A model generated the notes under the pieces. It had not been told where the DNA came from. It saw nothing but the letters and a program-made list of their open reading frames with translations, and searched no databases. A program made the translations under genes and the position numbers. A stretch of DNA of 64,000 nt, from contig CM102287.1 of the NCBI GenBank assembly GCA_046563655.1, positions 1,736,001 to 1,800,000 of the forward strand. The letters are read 5' to 3'. Positions 9,764 to 63,537 of the stretch are shown here, piece by piece; positions within the stretch are counted from its first letter, which is position 1, and every line of letters begins with the position of its first letter. The DNA comes from Yuukianura sp. NJ FZ-2021 (taxonomy: Eukaryota).

Positions 9764-12700
9764 AAGTGTTTTTAGTAGGTCTACATTGCACTCAAAGTCT
9801 TACATTAACAACGTCAAAATATGCGGCTGCTTCGCGTTGCAGTTTCTTAAGTCCTCAAAATTTTTGTATTAGGTCTGCATTGTACTCAAAATATTTTTAA
9901 ACAACGAAGTTTTGATCTTCTCATTTTCTGACATTATGTTTAGTTACGTTGTTAAATTAAGACTGATTAGAGGGTAGAAAATCCGGCTTAAATGATTACT
10001 ATGTGAATTGTGAATGACAAGGGTCAAATTTCCGTTTACTAGACATTTCTATAACTTCGATTTTAAACAATCGATATTTGATACCTGCACCTCAACGCTC
10101 AATTTTGTGCATGATGCACACTTATAGATACAGAAACGTTGAATTGTGCATTTTGATTTTGATTGTGAACCGATTTTGATTTTAAAGAAACGATATTTGA
10201 CACCTGTCCTTCAACGTTCAATTTTGTGCATGCTACACGCTTATTGCACTTGAATGTAAAATTGTGCAGATATTTTGACGCTGGGTAATAGACGTTATTA
10301 CGTCATAGGTGCTCAATTATTGTGCACCAAATAATTTTGAAGAGAGTGAAAATTGTGCAGAGTTTACTTTTTACAACATTTTCATGCAAACGGTTTTTTA
10401 ATATTTTTTCCTATTGGACAATTTGTTGCCAAAATGCAGATAGTAGGACCTCATATCCGCCCTGACAATTTTAAGCGATGTTTGGTATCATGGATTGCAT
10501 GAAAACGTTCTCATCTATGTGTTCCACGATTTTACGACCGGCCAATCTAAGTCGTATCAATTGTCTAGATTTACTAGAAATTTACTAGAAATGTTTATAA
10601 TTTCGATTTTAAACAATCGACATTCAAACCCTATCCCTCAATGTTCTATTTCTGCATTATGCACAAAGCTCAACTTCGACACCATTATTTTGATGCAGTT
10701 AGGTTTACGCTCTTTTCGATACTGCATTGTCATGGCAATATTTACAGTAAATTATGTGTATGTTGTTTATTTTCTGTGTTTTGTAATGAACCATTTCTGG
10801 CTGCAATTTGTAATTGGTAAACTTGCAATTTGTCTGAATAGCGTGTCATGTCAAAGATATAAATGTTACACACTTAAGATCAATTGACGACAATTTTCAT
10901 TCAAGTGTTAGTTTAATTCACAGTACTCAGATATATTTTAAGTAGTGAATTAGGTCTTAGGTTTATATTGTACAGCTACATCAGGTAAGTATATTTTATC
11001 TATTCTGATATATTATTTTAAAAGTGTTATCAATTAAAATCAATGCATTTTATATAGAAATATGGCTAGTCGTGAAGAACGGGCTAGAAGGAGGAACCAG
11101 AGGCAGCTTTTAAGGGGTACTGAATCCATAAATCAAAGTAACCAGAGCATTGACTCGCTTGCAAGACGAATGGTTCGCGATAATGAAGGAATGCGTGTTC
11201 TCGAGCAAGAACGGAATACTGAGGCTCATCGTCTCCTTCGGGAAAACGAAGAGTACCGGCTACTGGAACAACAACGAAATACTGAGGATCATCGTTTTCT
11301 TAGGGAAAACGAAGAGTACCGGGAACTTGAACAACAACGGAATACTGATGCTCATCGTAACTTTCGTGCTCAGTTTCATGATCAACCTTGGGAGTCTGTG
11401 GTTGATGTATTTGAAGCAAACTGCAGAGAAGGCCCTTCACATATCTGTATCTCCTGTGGTGGCCTTTGGTTCAAGAAATCTATCAAGCATCTGCGACGAT
11501 ACGACTGTACCCGATCCGATGACAACTTTCTGAACACTGTTTTCTTTATGGAACTGGAAGGAGACTTTTGTATCACGTGTTATGCGGCAGTGAAATCTGG
11601 TCGTAGTTCTCGGCTAGCTTTAACCAATGGTCTCCAGTTTCCCTCTGTACCAACTGAAGTATCGTCGTTGACCCGGTTGGAAGCCAGATTAGTTTCACCA
11701 TACCATGTTTTTCAGGCTATTTGGGCAGTACAAGGACCGCAAGGTACTTCAGAATTGTTTAGCTAAGCTATGGTAACGTTTATTTACGGTAATTATAATA
11801 TTTCCAGGTCAATTGAAGACAAAAGGTCGAATTGTGAATGTTCCTGTCTCTGTTACTAATATCGTCCAATCACTGCCGCGCAGGCCTTCCGACGATTCAG
11901 TCCTGCATCTCCGGCTGGCCCGTCAGATGCATGTTGAGAAGAATTATACTTCCGGAAACATCCGTCCAGAGAAGGTTATTCAAGCTGCCAAAGTTCTATG
12001 CAAATCTCCATTGTACTCTCAACATGGGATATCAGTTTCGAATTCCTGGATTGCGGATTCTCAACAAGAATTGAATTCGTTTGACTCAGCCTTGGAGAGT
12101 CAGCTTGAAAACTCTCATATAATTGCGAACGAAGAAAATCCGGACGCTGAAACCGAAGACTCGACAGCGGGTGAGACGATGCTAACAGATGCCTCGGGGC
12201 TTCGGATGGCCCCCGCTGAGGGAAATCGGCCTGTTTCTGTTCTTCTGGATGACGACGCTATATTTCTAGCTTTTCCTCAAATATTCGGCGGAGAAAAGCT
12301 CAATCCAATGTATGCCGGTAAAAAAATCTCAAAAGCTGACATGTTCAAGTCGTTTGCAAGGAACAAAGACCGACGTGCTGCCGAGTCAGTGGATTTCCTC
12401 TTGTACATGGCGAAGACTCTAGAAATTGCACGAATATCTAGCAATCGCACCATTCACTTGAGGAAACGAAAAATAAATGGTGAGCATATCATTCCAACTG
12501 CGGGACAAGTCTTGCACCAGACTTACGTTGATGGCCTCATCAAGGACGACAACGCTTATAAAGTCTTGTCCGGAATACGGAACGCAGGAGTACACTGGAA
12601 GAATGAAGGCAACAAAGTTCGAGCGATGATACGTACGTTTGGGATTGCCACATTGTTTGTCACGATTAGTGCTGCAGAGTTGAAGTGGAACGAGCTGTTG

Positions 12701-13311
12701 GTGTTATTGAAGAAAGTTCTGGACGGCATCGACATTTCTGAGCAGGAAGCCCAAGAATTGTCCACTTCTGAGAAAGCGTTGTTGATTCAGCGTGATCCAA
12801 TCACATGCGCGCGGTACTTTGACCACCGTTACTCCGCTCTGAAATCTACCTACAGATCTCGAAACGGGCCTTTTGGTAATCGTGAAATCCGACACTTCTA
12901 CGAAAGAGTGGAGTTCCAGCACCGAGGAAGCCCCCATGTGCATGCAATGTTTTGGCTGTCGGACGCTCCAATTTTAACTCCAGAGAGTGAATCGCATGAT
13001 GAAGTGACTGATTTCATTGACAGTATGATAACATGCCGTACAGACTACCCTCCGGAGGATACAATCACTGGTCTACTATATCTCCAAACTCATCGCCATA
13101 CACACACTTGCCACAAGCGAACACACAAGGGAGTCAAATGTCGTTTTGGAATACCCTTTTTTCCGATGGATCGTACACGCATCCTGTTGCCACTAAATGA
13201 ACCAGCAGACTTCAAAGATCTCAAGCTACAACACAAAGCTATTCGACGTTATCTGGAAACTCACGTTCCGGACACCGGGACGACATTTGATGCTTTTCTG
13301 GAAGAAATTAT
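9764..13311 (+). mobile_element. Helentron/Helitron2, 5' half (copy A), truncated
   Basis: Unique sequence starts where the satellite ends. It contains degenerate internal repeats and a spliced Rep gene. The exact 5' terminus is uncertain. Confidence 0.8.
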
Positions 13312-13318
13312 TGAATAA
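11062..13318 (+). pseudogene. Helentron Rep (HUH endonuclease) N-terminal part of RepHel; exons 11062-11743 and 11808-13311; truncated
   Basis: GT-AG intron 11744-11807 joins the two ORFs in frame. Motifs TLFVTISAAE, VEFQHRGSPHVH (HUH) and QTHRHTHTC...CRFGIP. N-terminal 21-aa charged repeats and a CxxC...CxxC module. Probable 5' UTR intron at ~10985-11057. Confidence 0.92.
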
Positions 13319-13744
13319 ACTTGAAGAACTCACAAACTGTAGCAACTGAAATTGGATTTTCTGAGAGTTCTTATTTTACACAATAAACTGTTAAGTCCAA
13401 CAATCTACGAGGCACTACTAATTCTAACAATCTAGGTAACTAGTATTTATACTAACCTAGTGACCTAGACTTAACACTAGTCATTTCCTAGTGACATTAA
13501 CTAAAACGTTATTCTTCCTAGAGTGTACGGCAGAACTGACCTTATAACTATTTTCCTGGTTCCTGGTTCTAACTTATAAATTATACACAAAGAATAACCT
13601 CGTATTAACAACCTAATTAATTGTAGGCGACCAATTCCTGTTCCTACTTACGTAGTAAAAAGTCCTAGACCTTAATTAGTCATATAGAACAAATCATGAA
13701 TCCTAATAAGTAATTAATCATAATCTTGTTTGGTATTTTCAACA
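13312..13744 (-). mobile_element. Probable solo LTR (433 bp), BEL/Pao-like termini, no TSD
   Basis: On the minus strand it starts TGTTGAAAATAC and ends TTCA, like the BEL LTR in this window (TGTTGAGAATAC...CTTCA). TATAAATA on minus at ~13444-13451. It cuts both the Rep and the integrase reading frames. Flanks attat and cacaa differ. Confidence 0.55.
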
Positions 13745-13745
13745 C

Positions 13746-14594
13746 ACAAAAACTGATGTACTAAAAGCATTAGAACAAATTCCAGCGTATACTCTTCACA
13801 AACCGGCTCGGAAACGCTACAAAAGACGAAAAGTTTTTATACCGTCCATAAGATATCAGTATATAATTGATCTAATCGATATTTCAAAGTATTCCGAAGC
13901 AAATACGAATCATAGGTTCTTGTTGACTTGTGTTGACGGTTTTTCTAAAGTCGCTGACGTCATCCCTTTAAAAAATAAAACTGGGAGTCAAGTAGCAAAC
14001 GCTTTACAAAAAATCTTTAAGAAAAGAGGCCCTCCAAAGTCAATTCAATTTGACGAAGGGAAAGAATTTTTAAATCGAAATGTTAAACAGCTTTTAAAAC
14101 AAAACTCTGTTTCATTCTTTAGTACTAGATCAGAACTGAAGGCAGTTATTGTTGAAAGATTTAACCAAACATTAATGAGAAGGTTGGCGAGATATATGAC
14201 ACACAATCAGACCACAAAATTCTTAGATGTGTTGCAAAATATTGTAACTTCATACAACAACACATATCATCGCTCCATAAAATGTACACCAAACCAAGTC
14301 AATGACGACACAAAAACTGAAGTATTTCTAAATTTGTACGGACACTTACCAAAACAAAACCAAACGAAACGGAAACCTGCTACCTTCAATGTTGGAGACT
14401 CCGTACTACTTAGTAAATATAAAACACTTTTTGAAAAGGGCTACGCCCAAAGCTGGACAAAAGAAATTTTCCAGATTGTTGAAGTTTGTAACTCCGTTCC
14501 CGTCACTTACAAGTTAAAAGACGGCAAAGGTGAAGACATATTTGGAATATTTTACAACGAAGAGCTGCAACGCGTTCCTCAGTCTTCAGTTTAA
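13746..14594 (+). pseudogene. Polinton retroviral-like (DDE) integrase, N-terminally truncated
   Basis: The frame is open upstream of the called ORF: AYTLHKPARKRYKRR...IIDLID...LTCVDGFSK...QFDEGKEF...IVERFNQTL...FEKGYAQSW...GIFYNEELQ. No in-frame ATG before the LTR-like junction. Confidence 0.92.
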
Positions 14595-14606
14595 CTTCGT
14601 CGTGAC

Positions 14607-15101
14607 ATGAGCTCGTGTCAAATTTGCTCTCTGTGGCGTTCTTTTGCAAATTTTTGCTTCAAAAAAAATTCAACTACAACAATTACTGTTTGTGAAACCT
14701 TTTCTTGTAACTGTAACCTCAATAAAACGTCGGAACTCCAGCCAGTCGAAATGGATTCTCCAATTCAAGATTTTCTTAACCTAAACCCAAATATACTCAC
14801 GGATACTACCCAAGAAAAAAAACAACGCAAACGAGTTCGAATTCCCAAGATTCCTCGTAAAGTCACATCTTTGGCAATGGTTGTTGAAGTTCGTCAAGAA
14901 TTTCCTAAACCACATCCACCACCACGAGTAAATTTGGAAGATGGTTGGCAGCTCTACATTGGCAATGAACAAGGAAATGACCAAGGACCGCTCACACATT
15001 TACATATTAAAAATGTTTACGATGCTGGATCTAGTGTTGTGATTCCAATTCATTTATTTGATTGTCTCACAGAAGGACTGTCAAAGTTGAAACGAAACTA
15101 A
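14607..15101 (+). CDS. Polinton hypothetical protein (164 aa)
   Basis: ATG-started ORF filling the space between the integrase and the convergent ATPase. Basic patch KKQRKRVR. Confidence 0.55.
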   Translation: MSSCQICSLWRSFANFCFKKNSTTTITVCETFSCNCNLNKTSELQPVEMDSPIQDFLNLNPNILTDTTQEKKQRKRVRIPKIPRKVTSLAMVVEVRQEFPKPHPPPRVNLEDGWQLYIGNEQGNDQGPLTHLHIKNVYDAGSSVVIPIHLFDCLTEGLSKLKRN

Positions 15102-15107
15102 GGTATG

Positions 15108-15766
15108 TTACTTTTTCAAATATACTATACAAGATTCTGGATCTGCAAATACATTTGATCTTTTTCGAAAGTCATCATTTTGACTTTGAGACATATCTAA
15201 AAATAAATAGCTATTTGGCTTGTTCTTTGTAGCATCCTCAAATGCTTCTTCTAGCGTCGAATTTGATTTTCCGCCATTCATTTGTCGTCCCAAATATTTT
15301 ATTATAGTCTTATCCCTTGGATTTCGAAATAATGCAACATATTTTGCATTTAAAGTCAAATTCCTACATCCTTTGAAGAAAAATTTTGAATCGTAATCAT
15401 AAGAGACAGTGAACGGTGATGAGAACCCCGAGTAACCATTCTACAAATATCCAAAGATGATCCAAGGTCTTCCATAAAGTCATCCAACACCACAAGGGTT
15501 GGTGTCTTGTTTCCAATGTCAACATCAATTTGATCCATACCTTGGCGAAAATCAATTTCAATTCCTTTTCCCCTGTTAACTCCTTTTAAACTTTTTGCAA
15601 AATCCGGCTCATCCTCGGCATAACAGTAGATTACACGCTTGATTTTTGGCTCAACAACTTCGTCTACGCGTTCCAAAACTTTTTTTATCAATGTACTTTT
15701 TCCACTTTGTGTAGGACCGGCCAACACCATGACAAACGGATGCTGCAATGAACATTGGATTTCCAT
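15108..15766 (-). pseudogene. Polinton A32-like packaging ATPase, frameshifted near 15380
   Basis: HPF...LAGPTQSGKST (Walker A), LVVLDD (Walker B), RGSHH...IQN, then LNAKYVALFRNPRD...YLFLD in the next frame. Confidence 0.92.
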
Positions 15767-15829
15767 CCCAACAAATCAAACTCCAAACAACTACTAACTG
15801 GAAGGACATTTAGTCTAATTGGCTTTATT

Positions 15830-18800
15830 CATCTTCTTCCATACCGTCTACAATTTGATGCAAATTCTTTTCTAATTCAATTCTATAATGACCAAATCTT
15901 AATGAATCAATTGGAGACAAATGTACATTGTAGTTGTATACAAACGATGATTTAAACTTCGAATTGTATTCATACTATAAGACTTGAACTGCCCGTTTTC
16001 TAAAACTTTTTTGTAATCTTCAAAATCCAATTCATTCTCCACAACCGAGCGAACTGTTCCTTTTGCCTTCTTCAGCTGAGTTTGGGTCCCATCCTCCTTC
16101 AACATCTTGATTGCATACATTTTTGGCTTCAATGCTATTGCTTCCGAAATTACTTCGTTGGCGCATTCATCCTTGAAGCAACCACCAACCCCTTCAAATT
16201 GCTCGCTCCACAAATATCCAAATTTTTCATTTGCTCTGTCGTACTTTGATGTGTCAAAGACGCCTTCATTCCTCCTCACACTTTCAGCAATATCTGCATA
16301 AACATCTTCCGTCTTTATGTGAAGCAAAAAACTATCAGTATCCGTATACATCAGCCTCATGTTGTCTCCATATCGCGGCTTTAACCACTTGTAGTAAAAG
16401 CTGTACATTCTACATTTGGAATCATCCAAAATGCACTGTCCAACAAAAATAGGTTTGTCCAGCCTAGCAGCCAACTTTTTCATCACAAACAAAACACACT
16501 CATCATGAACGATTTTGACGTCCTCAACGGTTGGCTTTCGGGCATACTCTCTCATCTTCTCTCTTGATAATGCAATGTTGATCCGCCTATATTTCCGGAC
16601 ATTCTGGTAAACTTTTCCCGCCAAAATGTTTCCCATGGCCTTGTAAAAGTTCTTATCCACCGGATTCGTAGCTTCGCGTCGACGTGTTATACAAATGTCC
16701 GTGTATACACGAAATAATGGAGCCTGAGTAAACCGTATGGCTCTGTGAACCTTCACAAGTTTCAGTCCAAGCTATAAAAACAACTTCAAAAGTCGATAAT
16801 GGACAATGTAGTTTGTTTTGTTACACAACGTTCCCAAAAGTTTTGTTTTTTTGCAAGATCCAGGTGTAGCTCCCACGTTCTTCAAAACTTCTTTCGTGTA
16901 GTCAGAGAGCCAATCGTATGTTATTTCACTTCGTTCTACTGCTAATGGGTAGTCATTGTGAGAATCATGTAATTCTTGTGGGTAATCCAAATCTACCTCC
17001 AAAACTAATCCCTCCGGACCACAATCATCCAAATCCATGATCATCTTCACAACACAATCCAAATTTCTTGTTCTGTTTTCCAAGGACTTTTCCCAAACAA
17101 AATCTTTCCAAGGTACGTAGTTTCTCAAACAAGTTGCGTACAAGGCGTTTGCATCCCAGTAGCAAATGTAACTCAATGGAAGCGTGGGGTCATATAAATT
17201 CCCCAAGTAAGGGTTATTCGCTTTTGCATAACGTAGTCCGACAGAACAAATTCCACCCCGAATCCCGCGTTCAAAATACATGTACTTGTCAATCTCATCC
17301 AGATACTCGTACTCCACTTTTCCTGCCAGCATTGCTGCGTCGTATGCTATTCCTGGAAGAGTGAGGTAGTGAGCAGGATCCAGGCGGAAACTCTCGAGCA
17401 TACTTCTTCTCATATTCTGGAAACAATCCGCCAGGAGGCAAACATCAAGAGAAACGTACAAGTTGTGATAATCTCTCAATGTTTGACAGCCAAATTCCCG
17501 CCAAACCGTATGCGCATGTTCCAAACCTTCAGGACTTATGGATTTTCCAGTCAAATCGCTTTTCCATTTTTCGGCAGGTGGCAAACACGTTTCATCAAAT
17601 CGCTCCATGGAGTCAAAGTAACTGTAAGGGTAAACCCCTTTTCTTAAAAGTAATTCAATTTTACTTCCGTACTGTTGAAAATGGTGACAAGTCACACCAA
17701 ATTTTTCTTTTCCTTCTTTGGCAAGCATTTTGACTTGCTCTGCTAAGCTCGCACTAATAAACTGATACGAATCAATCATTCGCAGAACATGATCTCCATG
17801 GGTTGTCAACCGAAGCGCAGTAAACTTCTCGGTGCTGCTGCTCGCCAAAACTTCCACAGATTTAATTGTACTAGCACGCAACGCTTGTACAATAAATTTC
17901 GAATCATAATGTCGAAAACCATGACAAACAACTGGAATGAATGAACAAACTTGGGCGTTCAGGTTACAAGGACCGCAACTCACTCCACGAATGGTTGATG
18001 TAATATGGCAGTGGTCAATGCACTTAGTGTCAACCCCTTCCACAAACTCCAGTCCACAATGAATACAGTGAGTTGAAGCCAGCAAAAGGCGAGCATAGTC
18101 AGATTCTGTCCATCGTGGGTCGAGGCCTACATCTTCTTTCAAAATTGGATATATCTTTCCGGCAACAGACACGAGCTCGTCAACCAACCTCAGTGCAGCA
18201 TTCGGACCACAAAATGTCACAACACGGTCCGCCAGATAACCGTCCGGCCCAATGATACTCATTGACCACCCACAGTCTAAATGTTCATTATAAACGGCAC
18301 CAATTTGTCGAGTACTAATGCCGTCTGTAGGTACTAACAGTGCTTCAAAGTCTAAGTATATGACATACGGCACAGGAAGACGTTGCACGATGAATCTTGA
18401 CGTGAATTATTTTTCGGTTGGTAAAACGACGCGTTGTATGTCCAAAGCCGCACAAAACTTTTCGTGATTTCGCAATTTCGTTTCGCTTTTTGAAAAACAC
18501 ATACAAAAACGACACACAAACTTTTCATACCCCCGTTCACCTTTTCCTAGCAATCGAGACAGCCCCTCCGTAGGATTATAATCACTTTGTCGCAACAGTG
18601 TGTAATGAGACTTGTTTCCGTCGATTAACAATAACAAATCAACTTTTTAACTTTTAGCAGAGGAAAAATGTCAATCTTCTTTTTCCCCTTCAAACTTGGA
18701 ACAAGTTCGTCTCGAGGTTCGTAACCAAACACATTTACTGCAATCTGTGGATTGAAGTGGTGGAACTTGTCAAGTTGAGCGATGGTCATCGGAAACTTTA

Positions 18801-20026
18801 TACAATCCCAGTCAATCTTACCAAGATCCGCCGGATAATTTTTAGGATTGGTAAAGGCGTACCAGTCTACATTTGGGTTTTTGTAAAGTGGGTTGAGTTC
18901 TGCCATGATAGCGTACTTGAAGCAGAAATCGTCATTGTTACGAATATTTATGATGCATCGTTTGTCGCGAATGACTTTTGGAGTCGGAATCCAACTTGAA
19001 CCTCGGTCCATCCTAAACTCGAAAACTCTCAGTTGAAGTACCAAGAAGCGCTTCAATTTCCAGCCCGAACCGTGGTGAACGAATGATTCCATAGACAATC
19101 TCATTTTAGAATACATTTGCCTCAGAATAGTTTGAATCATACTCTGATGAAAACATCCATGTAGAAAACTGTTGAACGGAAACCGTTCCACCTCGGCTTC
19201 ACTTGGTCGATCCCTTGATGTTCTTGTCATCTCTGCAACCAACGTACAAATCAACTTCATACCCCCAAACTCCTGAAGAAGTCCTTCCACCAAAATTGTC
19301 AGTGCGTTAGCTGTACTTCGCATCACACCCGTCACATCTGCAAAGAGTTGTGGAGTCAAATCCACCTCGAATTCACGTACAATACCAGCGTCAGCGCCAT
19401 TTCGCCGACGTCTGGCCCTCTGAACTTCTCGAATCTCGAGCCCACCTTGAGTTCCTCCCCACTGTTGACCTTGCAGTTGATCAGTGTAGAGTTCCCGATG
19501 AAACTCAAACCGATGGTAGTCGAGCTCTCCTGCGTTCTCAAACTTGATCGCGCAATATGAACAGAACCTCTCGCGATAGTTTGACAAGTCTGCAGTGATG
19601 ACCGATTGTTGAGTTTCTGACAATTCTTCTACAAAAAACATCAATTTCTTAATTTCAACACAAAGCCATCTACTTCGCTCTATTTCTGTTCTGTTGCTAC
19701 TACCTTCGTAATCAAGCAGCCCTTCTAAAATTTCATCAACAGTTGGGTCAACTGGTCTTTCCAAATTCCTTGCTCTAGATTCGTCATTGACTGGTACCCT
19801 GGGACGACTTGGACCCGCAACTTGTTCGTCATTTGGTTCCCACTCTAACCAAATTTAAACACCTTCATAAGATACTCCAAAGCCAATGTTTTTTTTAAAG
19901 CAAAATACCTTGACGTGGTATGCGAAGGTCGTAAACATGACGTTCAAAAGCGTGATCCCAAAAGGAATCTTGTGAATCGAAACGTTCTCCACAATTGTCA
20001 CATACAAATCTGCGTATTCCTTCCAT
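15830..20026 (-). pseudogene. Protein-primed family B DNA polymerase with N-terminal zinc fingers and an endonuclease VII-like insert; one intron; disrupted
   Basis: YLDFE (ExoI), CIHCG..DHCH..RG..C..CN, RKGVYPY, YWDANALY, KAMGNILAGK, YTDTDS, KPKMY, KAKG. In-frame TAG at 16772, frameshifts near 18400 and 18635, damaged C-terminus. ATG at 20026 with GT-AG intron 19845-19908. Confidence 0.93.
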
Positions 20027-20302
20027 GCTTCTTCCTCTTAGCTCGCACAACAAATGCTCACTTCCTCAAAACTTTCACTTCATTATATAGTAATTCACAA
20101 AACGTACCTCAAACGAAAATACATAAAACTTGAATCGATTTTTTATTCATTTCTCAACGTAGGATTCGATTTTTTTTTATTCATTTCTCAACGTAGGATT
20201 CGAACTCATAGCAACAAAGTCATCCCACAACTCAATTCAACATTTACTTGAATTGGGTTGTGGGAGGACTTGGGAAACTTGACACAAAATATCAACACTT
20301 GA

Positions 20303-21232
20303 CTAGGTATACACCCTAAATCTAATTAGTATAGGTTCTCTGCAAACTGCACAACTTTTTAATGACAATGAACATTTACGACATGCAACCAAATGTTTAC
20401 ATGGCAAGAACACGTCGCAAGCTTCTTTGTCCCAACAAATCTTACAAGTAAGGCTGTTGCCAGAGTCGTCTTTAGTAACACCAGAAACCATAGCGCCGGA
20501 TGCCGCTGTTAAAACGTGTTCAGTTGTCCCGGCAACACCAGTTCCTCTTACACTGGGTATATTAGTTTCGAGGGTAGTTATTTCTGCCACGTAACGTGTT
20601 GCAGCACCGGCCAAATCGGCTCCTCCATCGCCGGGAACGTCGGTTTCGGGCGCGGTTGCTGCGACCAACTCGGTTCCTCCCGTTTCAGCACTGGCAGCAT
20701 CTGTTCCCGGCTGGTCAGGGTCGGTGGAAACATCAGAAGCTACCGCGCTGCGCATACCGGTTCCTGTGCTCACATATTCGAAAACATCAATTCTCGTTGC
20801 TCCGGTCGCCTCGATTCCGTGGGTCCCAGTTACATCCGGAACGGTAACAAACCCAACCCCGGATAGTAGACCGGTCATGACCACAACATAAGGACAACGT
20901 GGGAAATGTTTGCGGTGCTCCAACAACGGCTCATCACCAACCACCCACTCCCCGACGACACCTCGGCAATACGGACACGCAACCTGATTTACGAGAGAAA
21001 AATATTAACACTTTTTTTTACATTTTTAAAGAAATTTGCAAATTACCCACCATGTCACCTACCCACGTTATCTTTTCACATAAAGCTGAAAATTACCCAC
21101 CTTGTCATCTACTCCGAGGTAGTAAAATCCCGCAAACGAACATGCTTCCGGGGTCACAAAATTCAATAGCCATCTTAGTTGAGCGTTCTGAAAAGTTTGT
21201 AATCTCCCCTCATAACTCATGAGGACCTCCAT
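20303..21232 (-). CDS. iap: Inhibitor of apoptosis (one BIR plus C-terminal RING), 270 aa; exons 21232-21101 and 20983-20303
   Basis: Spliced translation MEVLMSYEGRLQTF...W...TPEACSFAGFYYLGVDDK/VACPYCRGVVGEWVVGDEPLLEHRKHFPRCPYV gives the BIR C-x2-C-x16-H-x6-C pattern. RING CKICWD...FLPCKHLVACRKC...CAVCR. GT-AG intron 20984-21100. TATA-like element at ~21270. Confidence 0.93.
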
Positions 21233-21664
21233 ATTTCTTTGACTGACTTCTTACAACTCAAACCTAACTATATATACATGCGCAAAACCTAACTTTAGGG
21301 TCGACTAGTAATAGTACAAGTTGAAATGACGATGAAAATACAATTCTGGACTTTGTACGCACGTGTGCACTTACGGTCGTGACTCACATCCGTCCTTGAA
21401 AACTGGGCGGACTTTGGACCAAATACAAGTCTTCCAAAGATCTTAAAATGCGATCATTTAACCTTGCATAATTGCATGACTTATCCCCGTCTAATTTCGC
21501 TGAGTCACCTTCCGAAAGGAAACGTTTTCCGAAATAGGATACATAAACCAAGCTCAATGACTCATGACTGAAAACCTCAAACTTAAAAACAGAATGCAAT
21601 TTACCTTGAGTCACACAACGAAACTAAAACGTTTTACGTTCTTGGATAGACTAATCATGCTACT

Positions 21665-24600
21665 AAAGGACATCTAAATAACTTGTGTCCAAAAACAGTC
21701 CGAAATTTTATTTTAGCACAACTCTACTATGCAACAAGTGCATAAATCTAATAGCCATTTAGGTTTAACTAATGGGTGAACTATACAACAAAGCCTGAAA
21801 CCCTAAAACATGGAATTTACCTTTGTTACCGTTGATAACCATCTTTATGTTATGCATCAAATACCGGTCCACTTTGTCGTACTGCATCAACGACAAAATC
21901 ACAAAGTGAACCACATGTTGTCAGGGTTCATCTTTGAGCACAAACGAGAAGTGCCTGTGAAATGTCGAGCTTGTCCTCACTCCAGATACCAACCAGGAGT
22001 TCTCACTTTGACACTAGGAATCATGATCACTCAGTTGCCTATGGAATTTCAGGGAATATTCGATTATAACACTTTCCAAATAAAAATTGAACATTCACCA
22101 TTATTTGCAATTATTGGTTGGAATTTTTACGAAATACTTTTGTATGTTTTACTAACATCGTTCACTTCAAATAAAGGACATCTTAATAACTTGTGTCCAA
22201 AAACAATCCGAAATTTTATTTTAGCACAACTTTACTATGCAACAAGTGCATAAATCTAACAGTCATTTAGGTTTAACTAAGTGGTGAACTATACAACAAA
22301 GCCTGAAACATTAAAACATGGAATTTACCTTTGTTACCGTTGATAACCATCTTTATGTTATGCATCAAATACCGGTCCACTTTGTCGTACTGCATCAACG
22401 ACAAAATCACCCAGTGAACCACATGTTGTCAGGGTTCATCTTTGAGCACAAACGAGAAGTGCCGGTGAAATGTCGAGCTTGCCCTCACTCCAGATACCAA
22501 CCAGGAGTTCTCACTTTGATACTAGGAATCACGATCACTCAGTTGCCTATGGAATTTCAGGGAATATTCGATTATAACACTTTCCAAATAAAAATTGAAC
22601 ATTCACCATTATTTGCAATTATTGGTTGGAATTTTTACGAAATACTTTTGTATGTTTTACTAACATCGTTCACTTCAAATAAAGGACATCTTAATAACTT
22701 GTGTCCAAAAACAATCCGAAATTTTATTTTAGCACAACTTTACTATGCAACAAGTGCATAAATCTAACAGTCATTTAGGTTTAACTAAGTGGTGAACTAT
22801 ACAACAAAGCCTGAAACACTAAAACATGGAATTTACCTTTGTTACCGTTGATAACCATCTTTATCTTATGCATCAAATACCGGTCCACTTTGTCGTACTG
22901 CATCAACGACAAAATCATCCAGTGAACCACATGTTGTCAGGGTTCATCTTTGAGCACAAACGAGAAGTGCCGGTGAAATGTCGAGCTTGCCCTAACTCCA
23001 GATACCAACCAGGAGTTCTCACTTTGATACTAGGAATCACGATCACTCAGTTGCCTATGGAATTTCAAGGAATATTCGATTATAACATTTTCTAAATCAA
23101 AATTGAACATTCAACATTATTTGCTATTATTGGTTGGAATTTTTAGGAAATACTTTTGTATGTTTTACTAACATCGTTCACATCAAATAAAGGACATCTA
23201 AATAACTTGTGTCCAACAACAATCCGAAATTTTATTTTAGCACAACTCTACTATGCTACAAGTGCATAAATCTAACAATCATTTAGGTTTAACTAATGGG
23301 TGAACTATACAACAAAGCCTGAAACACTAAAACATGGAATTTACCTTTGTTACCGTTGATAACCATCTTTATGTTATGCATCAAATACCGGTCCACTTTG
23401 TCGTACTGCATCAACGACAAAATCACCCAGTGAACCACATGTTGTCAGGGTTCATCTTTGAGCACAAACGAGAAGTGCCTGTGAAATGTCGAGCTTGTCC
23501 TCACTCCAGATACCAACCAGGAGTTCTCACTTTGATACTAGGAATCACGATCACTCAGTTGCCTATGGAATTTCAGGGAATATTCGATTATAACACTTTC
23601 CAAATAAAAATTGAACATTCACCATTATTTGCAATTATTGGTTGGAATTTTTACGAAATACTTTTGTATGTTTTACTAACATCGTTCACTTCAAATAAAG
23701 GACATCTTAATAACTTGTGTCCAAAAACAATCCGAAATTTTATTTTAGCACAACTTTACTATGCAACAAGTGCATAAATCTAACAGTCATTTAGGTTTAA
23801 CTAAGTGGTGAACTATACAACAAAGCCTGAAACACTAAAACATGGAATTTACCTTTGTTACCGTTGATAACCATCTTTATGTTATGCATCAAATACCGGT
23901 CCACTTTGTCGTACTGCATCAACGACAAAATCACAAAGTGAACCACATGTTGTCAGGGTTCATCTTTGAGCACAAACGAGAAGTGCCTGTGAAATGTCGA
24001 GCTTGTCCTCACTCCAGATACCAACCAGGAGTTCTCACTTTGATACTAGGAATCACGATCACTCAGTTGCCTATGGAATTTCAGGGAATATTCGATTATA
24101 ACACTTTCCAAATAAAAATTGAACATTCACCATTATTTGCAATTATTGGTTGGAATTTTTACGAAATACTTTTGTATGTTTTACTAACATCGTTCACTTC
24201 AAATAAAGGACATCTTAATAACTTGTGTCCAAAAACAATCCGAAATTTTATTTTAGCACAACTTTACTATGCAACAAGTGCATAAATCTAACAGTCATTT
24301 AGGTTTAACTAAGTGGTGAACTATACAACAAAGCCTGAAACACTAAAACATGGAATTTACCTTTGTTACCGTTGATAACCATCTTTATGTTATGCATCAA
24401 ATACCGGTCCACTTTGTCGTACTACATCAACGACAAAATCACCCAGTGAACCACTTGTTGTCAGGGTTCACCTTTGAGCCCAAACGAGAAGTGCCGGTGA
24501 AATGTCGAGCTTGCCCTCACTCCAGATACCAACCAGGAGTTCTCACTTTGATACTAGGAATCGCGATCACTCAGTTGCCTATGGAATTTCAGGGAATATT

Positions 24601-25725
24601 CGATTATAACACTTTCCAAATAAAAATTGAACATTCACCATTATTTGCAATTATTGGTTGGAATTTTTACGAAATACTTTTGTATGTTTTACTAACATCG
24701 TTCACTTCAAATAAAGGACATCTTAATAACTTGTGTCCAAAAACAATCCGAAATTTTATTTTAGCACAACTTTACTATGCAACAAGTGCATAAATCTAAC
24801 AGTCATTTAGGTTTAACTAAGTGGTGAACTATACAACAAAGCCTGAAACACTAAAACATGGAATTTACCTTTGTTACCGTTGATAACCATCTTTATGTTA
24901 TGCATCAAATACCGGTCCACTTTGTCGTACTGCATCAACGACAAAATCACCCAGTGAACCACATGTTGTCAGGGTTCATCTTTGAGCACAAACGAGAAGT
25001 GCCGGTGAAATGTCGAGCTTGCCCTCACTCCAGATACCAACCAGGAGTTCTCACTTTGATACTAGGAATCACGATCACTCAGTTGCCTATGGAATTTCAG
25101 GGAATATTCGATTATAACACTTTCCAAATAAAAATTGAACATTCACCATTATTTGCAATTATTGGTTGGAATTTTTACGAAATACTTTTGTATGTTTTAC
25201 TAACATCGTTCACTTCAAATAAAGGACATCTTAATAACTTGTGTCCAAAAACAATCCGAAATTTTATTTTAGCACAACTTTACTATGCAACAAGTGCATA
25301 AATCTAACAGTCATTTAGGTTTAACTAAGTGGTGAACTATACAACAAAGCCTGAAACACTAAAACATGGAATTTACCTTTGTTACCGTTGATAACCATCT
25401 TTATGTTATGCATCAAATACCGGTCCACTTTGTCGTACTGCATCAACGACAAAATCACAAAGTGAACCACATGTTGTCAGGGTTCATCTTTGAGCACAAA
25501 CGAGAAGTGCCTGTGAAATGTCGAGCTTGTCCCTCACTCCAGATACCAACCAGGAGTTCTCACTTTGATACTAGGAATCACGATCACTCAGTTGCCTATG
25601 GAATTTCAGGGAATATTCGATTATAACACTTTCCAAATAAAAATTGAACATTCACCATTATTTGCAATTATTGGTTGGAATTTTTACGAAATACTTTTGT
25701 ATGTTTTACTAACATCGTTCACATC
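21665..25725 (+). repeat. 508-bp satellite, ~8 copies
   Basis: Near-identical ORF starts every 508 bp (21810, 22318 ... 25366). Confidence 0.98.
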
Positions 25726-25825: not shown

Positions 25826-28800
25826 AAGCTACAGCACAAATCGATTCGTGAATTTTTGGAAGCTCAAATCCCGAACGCGGGAATGTCATTTGAAGAATTC
25901 CTAGGTGCCATAACTTGCGATCTACCTATTTACGCGTGATACAAGTTAAACTAAAGAAGCCTCATGTGTTTTTGAAACGTAAACCGAGCGAAATCTATAT
26001 CAACGCCTACAACGAGAAGATTTTGCGACTGCAAAAGTCCAATATGGATAGTCAATATATACTTGATCCATACGCCTGTTGTAGCTATATTGTTGACTAC
26101 ATAAACAAAAGCAATCGAGGTCTTTCGGAACTGTTGAGGAATGTTGTGGACGAAGTGCGGAAAGGAAACACACCTCTAAAGGACAGCCTGCAAGCAATTG
26201 GAGCAGCTCATAACTTGAATAGTGAATTATCCGCGCAAGAAGCCGCCTACAATGTTCTACAGATGCCAATGAGCTACTCTTCGGAGAAGTGTGTCTTTGT
26301 TCAGACTGGTCCTGCCAGCCATCGTACAAGAATGTTGAAGTCTCAGGCGGATCTATCCCAGTTGGACCCCGATGACCAGAACATTTTTTTTACAAGTCCA
26401 ACTGATCACTATGCTCAACGACCACTCGCATTGGAATCACTGAATCTTGCTCAATTCTCTGCATGGTATGAATATTCCAAAACTATGAGAAAACAGGTAG
26501 TCGAACAACACGAAGAAGACGACGCATCTCCCAAAGAAGAAACGGGAACCGAAGTTTACAAGTTGAGAGACGGTTCTGGATACGTACGAAAGAGGAAATT
26601 TGCAAAAGTCATTCGCTTCGTGCGTTATAACAAAGAAAAAGATCCAGACAACTTTTTCCGGGAACTCTTGATGTTGTATAAGCCATGGAGAAACGAAGAG
26701 CAAGAGTGTGGGGAAAATACGGACTGTCGAAAAATTCTAGCTGAAAATATTGACTTGATCACCAGAAGCAGAAAAGAATTTAATTTCTTTGAAGATTGTA
26801 TTCTTGACATTGCGATGGAGGAAGTTCTCGCTAGGCCACCGGAGAATGAAGATGACTTGGATGAAAATCAGCCTTCGGCCGAAGACCTGCGCGAGTATCG
26901 TCTGGAAGATTCTTCAGGCACTAACGCAGTTGACTTTGGAAGCTACGAAAGACGACCATTTGCTGAAACTTTCAAGAATCCACAGTTGACTTCTAATGAT
27001 GAGTACTGGGCGCTACTTGCGTCTTTGAACGACGAACAAAGGGATTTGGTGTATCATACTTTTGATCAAGTGAAGCGGCATGACAATATACAATTTCAGA
27101 TCTACTTGAAAGGAGGAGCGGGTGTCGGAAAATCCCATGTTATAAAGACATTGCATCAGGGGCTCGTCAGAATTTTCAACTCTGATGTCAATCGTAATCC
27201 GGACAAAATCTGTGTATTACTGGTGGCACCCACTGGAAAAGCGGCCTTCAACATTGGAGGCTCCACTCTTCACACTGCATTTCAGTTACCTGTTAACCAA
27301 CGTGAAGCTGGCACCCTTTCGGCCGATGTTTCAAATACGATGGCTGCAACTTACTCGGAACTGAAGGTCTCACATTCTTTCACATATTTTATGTTCTTAG
27401 CTTAATCTAACTTAACATGCTGATTTTCAGATCGTTATATGCGACGAAATTAGCATGGTGGGCGAACATTTGTTGGAACAAGTGGACAAGCGCTTACGTG
27501 ATCTATTTACTTCAAGCGCACCTTTTGGGGGAATCTCTTTCATTGCCGTTGGTGACTTCTACCAGCTACCACCAGTTCTGGCTGTCCCGTTGACGCATGG
27601 CACGATGAGCAACTCCATTTCATCTTTATTCCATCGGCCTCTTTGGCACCACTTTCTTGTGCACGAGTTGACCACAATCATGCGCCAAAGCGAAGATATC
27701 GCCTTTGCTGTGGCCCTCAATAACATGGCCAGGGGAGTGATGACTGATTCAGATAAGGAACTGATGCGAAGCCGGTGCTTCGACACCCTGGCAACGGAAG
27801 TGGCGGAACTGAGACCTATCCACTTCTTCCAGACCAATGCTGCAGTGACCGCGTTCAACGAAATGTTCCTTCAGCAGATGCCAGGAGAACTGATCCTCAG
27901 CAGAGCTACCGATAGTGTTCGTGGTGATCTCCCTCAGACGTCAAGAGTCCGACTTCTGCAACGGTTTCAAACGAAACCGCTGAACGAAACAATGGGCCTT
28001 CCCATGGAACTTCAATTGAAAATTAACGCTCGTTATATGATGACCAACAACGTCGATTGTGCGGACGGATTAGTAAATGGTGTAACTGGTATATTACGAA
28101 GAATCGATCTTGGTGTGGCGATAAACGACCCTAGCGACCGTATTCCACTGCGACTATGGATAGAATTTGAAGACGCACGCAGTGGCCAGCAATTACGTTG
28201 CCGGTACCAATCAATTGCAGACAATTTGGGCGTTGAGTCAACTTGGACGCCAGTGGAGCTACTCACACAAGAGATACATCAAAAGAATGCCAGCATAAAA
28301 ATCACACGGAAGCAGTTTCCACTTGTTCCTGCAGAAGCAATCACCATTCATAAGAGCCAAGGAATCACGTGTCAATCGTAAGTATATAATAAGTATTCCA
28401 ATTTATTTTACAATTTAAGCATTCCGATTTATATTGTGCAGTGCTGTACTCCATATTGATCGTACTCGCCACCTTTCTCGAGCTTTGATCTACGTCGGCT
28501 GTTCTCGACCTACGAAAGCCAGTGGCCTTTACATTATGGGGGACTTCAGGCCTCCTAAACCAATTTCACCGACAAGTCCTCTCGCCTTGGAAATGGCTCG
28601 TCACGAAACCATGAAGCTGGTCCCAGTATTTCAATCGCTTCACAAAAGGGATGATGGTTTAATCCAGTTCCTTTACCACAACGTCCAGTCATTGCCAAAG
28701 CATTCCGCAATTTATTCTTCGGATGCAAGTTACAAAATGAGCGACATTCTTCTCTTTGGTGAAACATGGACTCTGCCGGAAGACAATGTCACAATTGGAG

Positions 28801-29711: not shown

Positions 29712-30968
29712 CTATTGTAATAGTCGATTCAGCGTATCTGCCTCCGCGGCTTCGAACCACTCTAACAAAAGCTTGGCCGTGCTATGATCTTTTCCCACTA
29801 AGATCAAATCGCCGGGGTTGCATTCAATTGAGTTGACGCCGTTGTAACTTGAGATCTTCACCAGTTTGAACAGAATCACCTCAAAGGGGATGATTTCCTC
29901 CATTTCCACCAAGTGGTTCCACAATTTGGCATTGAATTTTCCCGTCTTGTCCACCAGAGTGATTTGTCGAAGCTTGCATGTAGGAAACTCACGAATCTCA
30001 CCGACATCAATTACGAGTCCAGCCATATCGACAAATTGGCCATCGGACATCAACTTGAGATCTTCTGAGTCGATTGGAGTTAGTTTGACTTCATGACTCG
30101 CCCCTTTGGGCTCTGTAATGGAGGTGGCGTCAGTGCTGCTTGCATCAAATGATGCACTTGTCCATTTGTTTCGATTATCCTTTGGCCGAAGAAGAAAGCC
30201 TTCTACTCGAACAAAAGAGTTGACCTGAAACATGTTATTTGATAACTTTTAATATATTTTAAAATAATGGTGATAGAAATAATACGTTACACATACCTGA
30301 AGCAGGGACTCCCATTGTGGTTTCATTACTCCGAATAACGTGAACTGGATCTCCCCGGACTCGTCACCAAAAACAAAATGCTGCAGTTGGCCTCCGTTCC
30401 CGTACGTCATTGGTCGTGCAACCTTCAACACGAGGACTTCGATTGCACGAGATGTAACTGGGAGGTTAGGATGCAGCTGCTTCACAGCGATCACGGGAAG
30501 TTCAGCTGGGTCCTCGTTTGATTTCACTTGAGCTTTTTCAATCTGGCTTTTCCACTGCTGAAACGGCGACATGCAGCTTTGAGTACCGCTAGAACCAGGC
30601 ATGGGTTCAATCAGAGCGGATCCACTTTGATTGGCTTAATAAATAAAAATGATTAGTCATACTACTGTAAAAGCGACATTGGTTTTCAAAGTACATTTAA
30701 CAATTACCTGAAGGTTGTACATTTTGTTCCGCACTTGAAGTATTGGATTCAAGGCTCTCACTCACATCACTGGCATTTTGCGCTTGATCAATAGTAGCGT
30801 CACACTTTTCGTTTTCTATTAAATAAATGAACGATTTTCAAAAAATGTATATTTACGATGTTGAAAATTTGTTCTATTTTAAGAATTACCATCTGTGTCT
30901 TGCAGTTTCAGAACCTTCGGAGCAGGTTCGCCTTTGGTATTAGAGCACCCCTTCTTCTTAGGTGGCAT
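29712..30968 (-). CDS. RPA70-like OB-fold ssDNA-binding protein, about 4 exons
   Basis: VFGDESGEIQFTLF, FVDMAGLVIDVGEI and LRQITLVDKTG..NAKLWN are RPA1 OB-fold-like. Start MPPKKK at 30968. GT-AG introns at about 30818-30889, 30636-30707 and 30225-30296. Confidence 0.8.
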
Positions 30969-52954: not shown

Positions 52955-55900
52955 GTGGACTTGAGTGCCTATAGTACCGTAACCACGGCGTCAGGAACGA
53001 GGTCAAAGGTCAAGGCAGCAAATATATCCAAGATGGCGGACAAGAGCGATGATACTGGGACACCTAAGGCTGCTTCAGGAATTGTAGCAGCAGGGACCAG
53101 CATTAGCGTACTTCCGTCTACAGAAACAGACATCATGAAGAAACTGGTGAGGTCATTGAAAGACTTTTCTATGGATCTCCAGTATTTCCAAATGGAAATT
53201 GAAGAGTATGTAACTGCTCCAGCAACAGTCAATGGTACTGCTTTGGTCGTCGAACGTAAGAAACTGGATAATTTTGAATCTATGTTGAGTTCGATCAGAC
53301 AGGAAATTTACATGAATTGTGAAGACGATGACAAGCTTCGCGAACAGGCAAAGGAAATTAACATATGCGACAAATTCATAAAGAGGATTCGCACAAGGCT
53401 TATCTCTCTCGAGTCGAATGCTGGACTCTGCACCACAGGGGGACAGAGCCAAGGCACACAAATGAAGGTCAACATGCCCAAGTTGGAGTTGCCTACATTC
53501 AATGGAAAATACGAGGAATGGTTAAGTTACAGGGACTTAATGCTAACCTACGTTGTTAATAATGCTTCGCTTTCAGGAAGCCAGAAATTAGGTTATCTAC
53601 AACCAACCCTAAAGGGAGAGGCAGAGGAAACGTTGAAGTACTTTGACCTCAGCAATGGATCCTTCGAAGAGGCTTGGGAGACGCTGAAGGAGCGTTACGA
53701 GAACCCTCGTCAGATAATTTTTGCATTTTTGCAGAAAATGTTCAATTTTAAACCAATTGCGCAGGAGACTCCTCAGTCTTTACGCAAATTATTGGATGTA
53801 TTTAACATGTCCATTAGACAGTTGCAGGTTTTGAAAGAGCCTGTGTGTCACTGGGATTCTATACTTATCTTTTTGATTTTAGAAAAACTTTCGCCAGAGA
53901 CAAAAAAGGAATGGACAAAGAATTTCAAGGGAACGAACATGCCAGCATTTTCGGATGTCAAGGACTTCCTCGAGGATCATTTAAGATCACTCAATGTCAC
54001 TTCTGGTGATAAGTCGCGTAATGACAGTCAGAAGGCGATTGACAAGAACAAGGAAAGGAAGGTGCACACTGTGTCAGGCAGTCACCCGAAACCATGTCTT
54101 AAGTGTTCTGGAGAGCATGGATTATTCAAATGTCCAGAATTTGGAGCCTTGCCTCAGGACCAAAGGGAAAAGTACGTAAGGGCTAATAAACTCTGTCTGA
54201 ATTGTTTAAGGCCTGCGCACACTGCAGAAAATTGTCGTGCTCCTTTCACTTGCGGAAAGTGTAAGAAGAAGCACAATACACTCCTTCATCGTGAGAAACC
54301 ACAACCAAGGTCCGAAGGTCAACCAAGGTCAGAAGTTCAACCAAGGTCAGAAGGTCAACAAGGCACTTCGACATCAGCCAACCATTGCGCCGGTGCGCGT
54401 GTGGTTTTAGCCACAGCCATTGTCAATGTGCAAAATTCCCTTGGAGATCTTCAGAGTTGTCGAGTCCTACTCGATCAAGGTTCGGAATCTAATTTCATTT
54501 CAGAACGATGTGTAAAATTTTTAGGTCTGAACCGTCGTGGAACTGACGTCAGAATCACAGGGATTTCTGGAGCCATGGTGCAAAGGGCACTTGGGGAAAC
54601 GTCATTCCAAATTGAGTCAATGGCAAAAAATTACAAATTTACTGTTAATGCATTGATTTTACCCAAAGTAACAGGTACATTGCCATCATTTCAAATTAAT
54701 CCAAGTGATTGGACATTTTTGGACGAATTGGAGTTGGCCGATCCAGAATTTTACAAGCCAAATGACATTGACATTCTGATTGGAGGAGAATTCGTGGCTC
54801 GTCTCAAAACTGGTAAGAAGGTTCAAGGAGACCTTAATCATCCAGTAGCAGAAGAAACAGAACTCGGTTGGGTAATTTCCGGTCCAGTCAAACCAGGCCG
54901 TGTGGTGAGTGTGAACCACGCTTTAGTGGAAACTAATCAGATTTTGCAGAAATTTTGGGAATTGGAGAATGTCCCACACCACCAGCCACTGACAACAGAG
55001 GAGAAAGCCGCCGAGGCACATTTTGTAGCCACTCACTCCAGAAATGATGACGGAAGGTATGTTGTCAAGTTGCCATTCAAACAGAATTGCCAAAATTTAG
55101 GTTCATCCCGAGAAATAGCCCTGAGACGGCTGTACGGAATTGAACGGAGATTAGAAAAACATCCTGAACACAAGGTCGAGTACCGTAAGTTCATGAGTAA
55201 TTATGTTGAACTTGGTCACATGGTCCAGGTTCCCAAGTTGGGGGCAGGTGAGGTGATGGGAGTAACTAATTATTTTCCACATCACTTTGTACTAAAGGAT
55301 ACCAGCTCCACTACGAAATTGAGAGTCGTGTTTGATGGCTCTGCGGAAACGAGCAATGGAATTTCGCTTAACAAATGTCTAATGGTTGGTCCAACTGTAC
55401 AAAAGGACATATTCTCACATTTGCTCAATTTCAGGTCAAAAGAAATTGCTCTAAAGGCGGACATAGTGAAAATGTACCGTCAGTTTCTGGTTCATCCATT
55501 GGACCAAGACAAACAACGGATTCTCTGGAGAGACAGTCCGAAAGATGAAATTCAAGAATTCAGGTTGACTACAGTCACTTATGGCACAAGTTCAGCGCCA
55601 TTCCATGCTGTCAGATGCTTAAATCAACTTGCTGAGGATGAGGGACTTAAATACCCACGAGCAGCAGAGGTAATCAAAAATGATTTTTATGTTGATAATT
55701 TATTGACAGCGGTAGATACATCAACGGAGGCCAGTCAGCTGATTGCTGACTTGACCAGTCTTCTAAGCCTTGGACGCTTGGAACTATCAAAATTCGATTC
55801 GAACTCAAAAGAGGCACTTAAAGATGTTCCTGAGGACAGGAGAGGCAAGAATGACAATTTTAGTGACCTTGACGTGGACAGGGTCTTAGGAGTCTGCTGG

Positions 55901-62200: not shown

Positions 62201-63537
62201 ATGGATTCAATAGAGAATGGGAAAAAACCAAAACCAACCACAAACCTCGAAAAACTAAAACCAACCCAAAGCTAAACAGAAGTTGAAGCTCGGATTCAAT
62301 TGGAATCTTGAGTTCAGCTTCTCTCGGTTTGGGTTTCCAAGCTGAAACTGAGCCGATCGTCTCAAACCTATACCTCCTTACAAAAGCAAGTTGGGGCGGG
62401 AAAAATTTTGAATTGCAATTTCAAATTGACATTATGTTTACATAATCAGCTGACTTTTACAAAATCAAACTTTATAACCTTTTTACATTCCATATCATGC
62501 AAATTGTGTTTACCTAATCAGCTGACTTTTACAAAATCAAACTTTATAACCTTTTTACATTCCATATCATGCAAATTGTGTTTACCTAATCAGCTGACTT
62601 TTACAAAATCAAACTTTATAACCTTTTTACATTCCATATCATACGGATTTGTTCCCATCTCACTACTTTCAACTTTCAACTTTTCAGACAAGGAATAGGC
62701 ACTGACCACTACGGCGCTGACCTATCCCTTGCTTCATATGATGTATTCGATTAATTGTAACCGCCTCTTATGAATTTGTTTTTATTATAGGGAATGTTAC
62801 CAGTAATGAATTAGTTTCATTCCATTCCATCCCAAGTGTACCAATTAGATTTGGTTAGGGGCAATGTTTATTGGTAGAACCACCGGATGGTCAGAGCCAC
62901 GAAAATGGTCAGCGCTTCCGGTGAGTCCAAATCATTTGACATACCGGGAGAACGTTTAAGACATAAAACGACTTACTGTCACTGTTAGCAGGAATCTTAG
63001 CGTAATGTTCAAATGTGATGATTAGGTTACTGCAGATCTCATTTTAATAGTATAGTTACTCCCTCCACTGCATGAAAGTAAGAAGTTTCTCTATTCCGAA
63101 CAGGGAGCTGACGTCATGACTTTAATGTCACAACCACTGCACAATTAGTGTTGTTGCGTATGGTTTTTGACTTTACCACCTTTATATTCTAGCGGACTAC
63201 TGCGCTGACCACTTATTATGGCGCTGACAGTAGTCCTAAACAGTGGTAATTAGTAATTAGTAATGGAGAAGTAATGGGTAAACCAGTTCCAAGCCTGGTC
63301 TGGACCTGGATTGCAAAAAGCTTGGTTTTGGCTAACTTTTGGCTTACTCGAAAAGTCTATTGCATAAGCCAATGCAATAGACTTCACGTTTTCCCCTCTT
63401 TCGCTCGGTTTCGGCTAGGTTTGCAGATGGTTTCGGCTAGGTTTTCGCTTCAAAATTTTGGATTGCATAGGTTTTCGCTTGCAATCCGCTTCTAAGCATA
63501 AACCAAGCCGAACTCAATTCTCTATTGAATTCGACTA
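62201..63537. mobile_element. Non-coding ~1.3-kb insertion with subterminal inverted repeats (non-autonomous DNA element?)
   Basis: attcaatagagaat (62205-62218) is the reverse complement of attctctattgaat (63517-63530). ctggag occurs on both flanks and the satellite resumes in register. Confidence 0.6.
62435..62641. repeat. 72-bp minisatellite, ~3 copies
   Basis: tgtttacctaatcagctgacttttacaaaatc...tccatatcat repeated; the 24-aa repeat in the overlapping ORF reflects it. Confidence 0.92.

Follow-up and report, generated by a model that had tools for sequence, protein, structure and literature searches.

A candidate intron-split BIR and RING gene as probable accessory cargo of a decayed Polinton/adintovirus fragment

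To understand how an apoptosis inhibitor gene (IAP) comes to lie beside the polymerase gene of a Polinton, we were interested in a locus within a 64-kb stretch of DNA, hereafter the window. Its Polinton fragment (13.4-21.66 kb) holds four genes, namely an rve integrase, a P-loop ATPase, pPolB and the IAP. Two questions arise: whether the IAP is cargo of the element or a neighbour by accident, and whether its BIR domain is assembled across an intron. We consider it probable (roughly 0.7) that the IAP belongs, as an accessory gene, to an endogenised Polinton/Maverick, an adintovirus-like provirus. The coordinates of the features are collected in Table 1.

Table 1. Features of the Polinton fragment, the IAP gene and its flanks in the window
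Feature	Coordinates	Strand	Details
rve-type integrase	13710..15101	+	rve E 5.1e-12 at 13710-14594; in-frame stop 14592-14594
P-loop packaging-type ATPase remnant	15108..15775	-	frame change within 15356-15440
pPolB	15864..19854	-	DNA_pol_B_2 and Endonuclease_7; broken
IAP 3' flank	20139..20264	-	hairpin-forming palindrome 20224-20264; AATAAA at 20181-20176 and 20147-20142; 34-bp tandem repeat 20139-20203
IAP exon 2	20303..20983	-	coding 20983-20306, 226 codons; stop 20305-20303; second BIR half, Thr/Gly/Ala/Val-rich linker and IAP-type RING
IAP intron (predicted)	20984..21100	-	117 nt, phase 0, GT..AG, 4 in-frame stops
IAP exon 1	21101..21232	-	ATG 21232-21230; 44 codons; first BIR half; Pfam BIR positions 1-36, E 0.027; own BIR profile 25.3 bits
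Candidate TATA box TATATATA	21269..21276	-	37-44 nt upstream of the IAP start codon; read from the sequence
TGA(C/G)TCA heptamers, four (AP-1/TRE-like)	21380..21613		IAP 5' flank; candidate enhancer or subterminal repeats
508-bp satellite array	21664..25725		abuts the Polinton and marks the end of recognisable Polinton sequence; self-BLAST

A sequence-only reading of this DNA had proposed a 117-nt GT-AG intron splitting a complete BIR, and a spliced IAP of 270 residues free of stops and frameshifts. As a gene model, both proposals were borne out. When the exons were scanned separately, exon 2 matched positions 37-69 of the Pfam BIR (E 1.4e-7) as well as zf-C3HC4_3 (E 1.7e-11), and BIR positions 36 and 37 abut exactly at the proposed exon junction. 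The donor reads AAG/GTGGGT, and at the acceptor CAG/G comes after a pyrimidine-rich tract. The joined exons form an 813-nt coding sequence of 270 codons with the terminal stop alone, in which our own BIR profile, home-made from six BIR sequences, finds a single ungapped match of 75.3 bits, compared with 42.1 and 25.3 bits for the separate halves. BIR and RING were thus both recovered, by Pfam on each exon and, for the BIR, by the home-made profile on the join. The remark that the list of open reading frames shows only the RING half needs an amendment: the RING is there, but the frame at 20303-21004 holds the second half of the BIR as well.

In the spliced reading, a CX2CX16HX6C zinc-site motif occupies residues 47-74, and the predicted protein is laid out as one BIR, a linker of about 140 residues that looks disordered and is dominated by T, G, A and V, and a C-terminal IAP-type RING. 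The best PDB matches of the latter are the RINGs of cIAP1, cIAP2, XIAP and ML-IAP (3t6p, E 7.2e-16; 3eb5, E 1.4e-11), and every Cys and His of the aligned block is conserved in the alignment to PDB chains and relatives. The home-made profile found neither a second BIR nor a remnant of one, including in the linker, in any frame of the whole 64-kb window. The gene model of Table 1 is far above chance. With a BIR bearing the zinc site and a C-terminal zf-C3HC4_3 RING, the predicted protein is classified as a member of the IAP family.

The IAP is encoded upstream of pPolB and on its strand, at a distance of 450 bp from the pPolB ORF. Its companions are in poor condition. The ATPase ORF (15356-15775) matches AAA_22 (E 6.5e-5), Adeno_IVa2 (E 8.1e-4) and Pox_A32 (E 0.014), all of them weaker than the curated cut-offs. 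Aligned with its best relative (P0004, 47% identity), pPolB is read in three frames, with two frame changes and two in-frame stops; its identity to many animal Polinton PolBs is 36-40%. The polymerase region also contains an Endonuclease VII-like insert at 16775-18406 (PF02945, E 6.2e-7) and an N-terminal ORF with a C2H2-like motif, and several relatives of pPolB show the same Pfam families. Pfam revealed no double-jelly-roll capsid, penton or adenain-like protease among the 16 window ORFs of at least 150 residues and five further ORFs; the region 13710-21232 is filled by integrase, ATPase, PolB and IAP, leaving no space for virion genes. Apart from a local palindrome, we found no inverted repeats of at least 25 nt in 10000-31000, and a sensitive BLAST of 21233-21700 against 13250-13760 gave nothing above 11 nt on the opposite strand. 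The TIR and 6-bp target-site duplication typical of a Polinton were accordingly not found in the window copy, which is a decayed, capsid-less deletion derivative of a Polinton/adintovirus.

The survival of the IAP reading frame beside a decayed pPolB and ATPase had been put forward as meaningful, and this argument carries no weight. Given six lesions in the 5.8 kb of the other genes (integrase, ATPase and pPolB), an 813-nt coding sequence escapes without any with P about 0.43, so that its intactness has no statistical value. It is most simply explained by luck or by the youth of the copy, and is no proof of host co-option.

Contigs from four public DNA runs were aligned to 12800-21700 with a likeness threshold of 80%. 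Organism A supplied three of the runs (X1, X2 and X4), all from a single sample, and organism B the fourth (X3); depth here reflects contigs and says nothing about copy number, and thin cover in X3 is not taken as absence. The 332 pieces from X1 comprise 98 at 99% identity or above, 86 at 95-99%, 68 at 90-95% and 80 below 90%, and the whole stretch exists in many diverged versions. At position 20411, in the RING exon, the letter differs from the window in four X1, three X2, one X3 and two X4 contigs. One X1 contig (record 8) covers 20423-20845 with six differences, and one X3 contig (record 24, organism B) extends over the 444 letters of 20174-20617, which include the IAP stop codon, and differs from the window at 42 of them. 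Pieces of PolB from organism B differ in as few as 5 of 469 letters, and its Polinton reaches 96-99% identity in some pieces. The IAP is therefore present in several sequence versions in the runs of organism A and also in a second organism, which fits the cargo of a repeated element.

Other copies also differ from the window in extent. None of the contigs listed connects pPolB with the IAP. The gene is jumped over in two X4 contigs, one with a joint from 20210 to 21196 and the other with a joint from 20081 to 21016. The sides of these joints, 29 and 21 letters, were flagged as unreliable; the contigs may stem from copies that lack the gene or have a diverged version of it at that place. One contig carries a 38-letter insertion at 20657, and in one joint the linker is shorter by 424 letters; several other copies may, with such changes in intron or linker, encode a different protein. 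Contigs of other copies part from the window in each of the four runs, some diverging before 14877 and others behind 14950. This suggests that longer copies have extra sequence between integrase and ATPase, and the stretch missing at 14877-14950 may be the virion module. Within the integrase region, one contig each in X1 and X2 swaps 939 letters (13773-14713) for three telomere-like units of the arthropod TTAGG type.

The outer end of the fragment can be placed more closely. The IAP had been described as lying between pPolB and a putative Polinton terminus at 21664. Its place next to pPolB on the same strand stands, but 21664 is the first base of the satellite and no demonstrated terminus. An X4 contig returns from 21658 to 21592 with 16 other letters in between, so that a repeat of 21592-21658 replaces the satellite. 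Subterminal repeats may thus carry on past 21658 in other copies, and 21663 would be the truncation point in the window.

The surroundings consist of further repeats. The 508-bp satellite adjoining the fragment shows, by self-BLAST, 97-98% identity to arrays at 31756-52000 and 59269-63860, which lie in inverted orientation, and its units are 96-98% identical to each other; TRF, with a longest period of 500, missed it for that reason. On the forward strand, the Rep part of a Helitron (DUF6570 and Helitron_like_N) occupies 11038-13318 and a PIF1 helicase 25894-28381, with an RPA-like OB ORF at 29712-30248. The Helitron RepHel thus appears to be split into halves 12.6 kb apart on the same strand, with the Polinton fragment and 4 kb of satellite between them. 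A BEL/Pao retrotransposon at 52955-58290, located between satellite arrays, has frames of 1235 and 562 residues with Peptidase_A17, DUF1759, DUF5641 and Integrase_H2C2, and may be a young insertion.

Next we turn to the relatives of the IAP and of pPolB. A word-based search with the IAP returned three matches (P0001-P0003) of 24-26% identity, all with two BIRs and a RING. The exhaustive search gave 3858 matches among 1.84 billion representatives, none better than E 3e-30 and with identity confined to BIR and RING; all ten that were scanned with Pfam have two to six BIR stretches and a RING. The window BIR is closest to BIR1 of P0002 (49% over 57 residues). Arthropoda are commonest among the nearest BIR and RING clusters in Atlas, which we treat as a lead only. 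Together with the TTAGG-type units in the integrase region, likewise no more than a lead, this makes an arthropod the probable host of the element. Single-protein scans of IMG/VR with the IAP and PolB, and a scan with the IAP alignment, gave no close relatives. We collected 93 related pPolB loci, 80 from metagenomes and 13 from IMG/VR, with a median length of 4.5 kb and 22 of them at least 8 kb long. A single one of these (L068) carries a BIR, on which tblastn and our profile agree; judging from these loci, an IAP is an uncommon accessory gene.

L068 is a 13.2-kb metagenome contig (1-13170) with an intact PolB of 1263 residues, a DJR capsid protein, adenain, rve, an A32-like ATPase and a pX-like ORF, and by this gene content is classified as a near-complete adintovirus-like genome. 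The BIR (E 1.2e-10) and the RING (E 8.6e-13) of this contig are encoded in separate frames. The best stop-free GT..AG pair that joins them, CAC/GTGAGT...TTTTCCTACAG/, would remove a 70-nt intron (6463-6394, minus strand) and yield 172 residues. L068 therefore resembles the window in having a single BIR and an IAP-type RING beside pPolB and in needing a short candidate GT..AG intron. The two loci differ in other respects: the pPolBs are only about 35% identical, the BIRs share 40% identity over 42 aligned residues, and the L068 gene sits downstream of PolB on the opposite strand, whereas that of the window sits upstream on the same strand. The L068 intron falls between BIR and RING, unlike the window intron inside the BIR, and its 172-residue product lacks the long linker of about 140 residues present in the 270-residue protein of the window. 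Since intron position, gene position and strand all differ, the L068 gene was probably acquired independently.

The main competitor of the cargo reading holds that the BIR and RING gene belongs to a segmentally duplicated, heterochromatic block made up of Helitron, Polinton fragment and satellite, or that it is a paralogue or pseudogene of a host IAP lying by chance beside a Polinton remnant. Neither TIR nor target-site duplication was found around the fragment, so that the location of the IAP inside the element, like its membership of a full-length mobile unit, is presumed. The position of the Polinton between two RepHel halves and against a satellite indicates a rearranged locus. The neighbourhood is wholly repeated DNA, and all of the placed stretch, including the Helitron part at 12800-13096, occurs in several versions, so that several versions alone are no proof of Polinton membership; 92 of the 93 related pPolB loci, moreover, are without a BIR. 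Against this reading, the strand and compact spacing of the IAP match those of pPolB, and the zone upstream of PolB is, in the text of PMC8502044, the usual place of the adintovirus accessory "Oncoid" genes. A TATA-like box and poly(A) signals of its own accompany the IAP within a span of 1.1 kb, there is no other host-like exon near it, and a second BIR occurs nowhere in the window. Organism B has both the Polinton and the 3' part of the IAP. Independent precedent comes from L068 and from the passages on IAPs in two papers (PMC8502044; bioRxiv 10.64898/2026.07.28.741253). Taken together, we regard a non-cargo origin as unlikely and retain the accessory-gene reading.

Within that accessory gene, the 117-nt segment is predicted to be spliced as an intron. 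A TTAAT branch-like motif, a pyrimidine tract and the donor are in place within 20984-21100. The borders both read AG/GT (AAG/GTGG and CAG/GTTG), and the interior contains a diverged duplicate (21040-21068) of the junction between exon 1 and intron (21087-21115), offset by 47 nt. These features would fit an intron born by insertion or duplication, and equally the look of a proto-splice site. As for other copies, one X2 contig (record 16, 20699-21116) covers the entire intron with 12 differences, and the inner intron 20987-21081 (95 nt) is skipped or replaced in five contigs over the four runs. A quite improbable alternative, to which this loss of the inner 95 nt lends some support along with the duplicated junction, a length divisible by three and the unbroken ORFs of the nearest metagenome relatives (P0001-P0003), is that the 117 nt entered a viral IAP without introns by insertion or duplication and so inactivated it, in which case the GT..AG ends would follow from the AGGT direct repeat that a 4-bp target duplication would leave at both borders; yet the segment separates Pfam BIR positions 36 and 37 precisely, the donor, pyrimidine tract and branch-like motif are in place, another Polinton-borne BIR and RING gene, that of L068, likewise needs an intron, and a transposon- or duplication-born insert with such ends would still be spliced, which amounts to intron gain and not gene death.

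The flanks of the gene contain candidate regulatory signals. Both AATAAA signals sit within the 34-bp tandem repeat downstream of the IAP stop. The heptamer TGA(C/G)TCA occurs at 10 sites in the 64 kb, four of them crowded into 234 bp on the 5' side of the IAP; a rough Poisson estimate puts this cluster far above the average density of the window. In the other copy described above, the 16 letters between the sides of the joint that goes back 67 contain one further heptamer. Sites for bZIP proteins act in the hr enhancers of baculoviruses, and the cluster would act in a comparable way if it drove the IAP. Two ideas, which we hold jointly and regard as tentative and rather doubtful, can be put forward here. 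The heptamer cluster could drive the IAP and so link its expression to the host stress (JNK) response, and spliced anti-apoptotic genes could be a recurrent, independently acquired trait of animal Polintons/adintoviruses, as the differing intron positions of the window and L068 might indicate. If such recurrence were true, the genes would have been taken from host chromosomal DNA and not from cDNA or another virus, or else the introns would have been born inside the virus. In the latter case, the AG/GT borders and the duplicated junction observed here would fit an insertion or tandem duplication.

By analogy with known IAPs, a plausible course of action can be outlined. The gene would be transcribed from its own TATA-proximal promoter and end at the candidate poly(A) signals, and the host spliceosome would remove the 117-nt intron to give a 270-residue, single-BIR RING E3. 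As in cellular and viral IAPs, the BIR may bind caspases or IAP antagonists of the Reaper/Hid/Smac type, and a dimerising RING may ubiquitinate the caspases or antagonists bound to it. Apoptosis would then be blocked in the cell in which the element replicates or reactivates. Expression and anti-apoptotic activity of the IAP are, on this analogy, presumed. A spliced and active IAP would support a true infectious phase, past or present, in which the host cell needs to be kept alive, and would mean that accessory genes of Polintons are processed by the host spliceosome. The general picture of Polinton biology is unchanged, and the window copy is dead.

Compared with cellular IAPs, the RING of the window aligns over about 42 residues with those of cIAP1/2, XIAP and ML-IAP/BIRC7 (3t6p, 3eb5, 4ic2 and 4auq), and has in common with them the zinc ligands and an aromatic tail at the C-terminus. 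The BIR has a leucine where the cIAP1 BIR3 chain has a tryptophan, a residue that we take to line the IBM groove in BIR3 of XIAP and cIAP. The nearest metagenome relatives (P0001-P0003) are arthropod-type IAPs with two BIRs, in contrast to the one BIR of the window. The IAPs of baculoviruses, entomopoxviruses and iridoviruses (Op-IAP/Cp-IAP) have a classical form of two BIRs and a RING and are generally intronless. Like the predicted product of the window, these are viral BIR and RING proteins, and they block apoptosis of infected arthropod cells. The window gene departs from the baculovirus type in its single BIR, the intron within it and the low-complexity linker of 140 residues, and Pfam found no genes of large DNA viruses among the ORFs of the window.

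The closest comparison is with adintoviruses. The IAP had been regarded as lying outside the core Polinton gene set; its presence is no novelty, as adintovirus/Polinton homologs are in print. Section 3.2 of Starrett et al. (2021; PMC8502044) mentions adintovirus homologs of Bcl2 and IAP, and according to the legend to Fig. 5 of bioRxiv 10.64898/2026.07.28.741253, the ORFs of eight leafhopper adintovirus genomes include a baculoviral-type IAP. The terms "splic" and "intron" have no relevant occurrence in the available text of either paper, and IAP, BIR and apoptosis are absent from the supplement text of PMC8502044. In the literature searched, we found nothing on introns in Polinton IAPs; the passage on an intron in PMC10748475 is unrelated. 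The kind of gene is thus already known, and what is new is a single-BIR architecture split by a predicted intron, the reappearance of such an architecture in L068, and the cluster of heptamers. The window IAP provides a concrete example for a brief published remark, with an intron gene model, a candidate promoter and a reduced single-BIR architecture. As far as the cited passages describe them, the published adintovirus IAPs resemble that of the window as BIR-family, presumably anti-apoptotic accessory genes accompanied by pPolB, an rve integrase and a packaging ATPase, the last a candidate in the window; the window differs from them in a gene split inside the BIR and in its carrier, a decayed capsid-less remnant.
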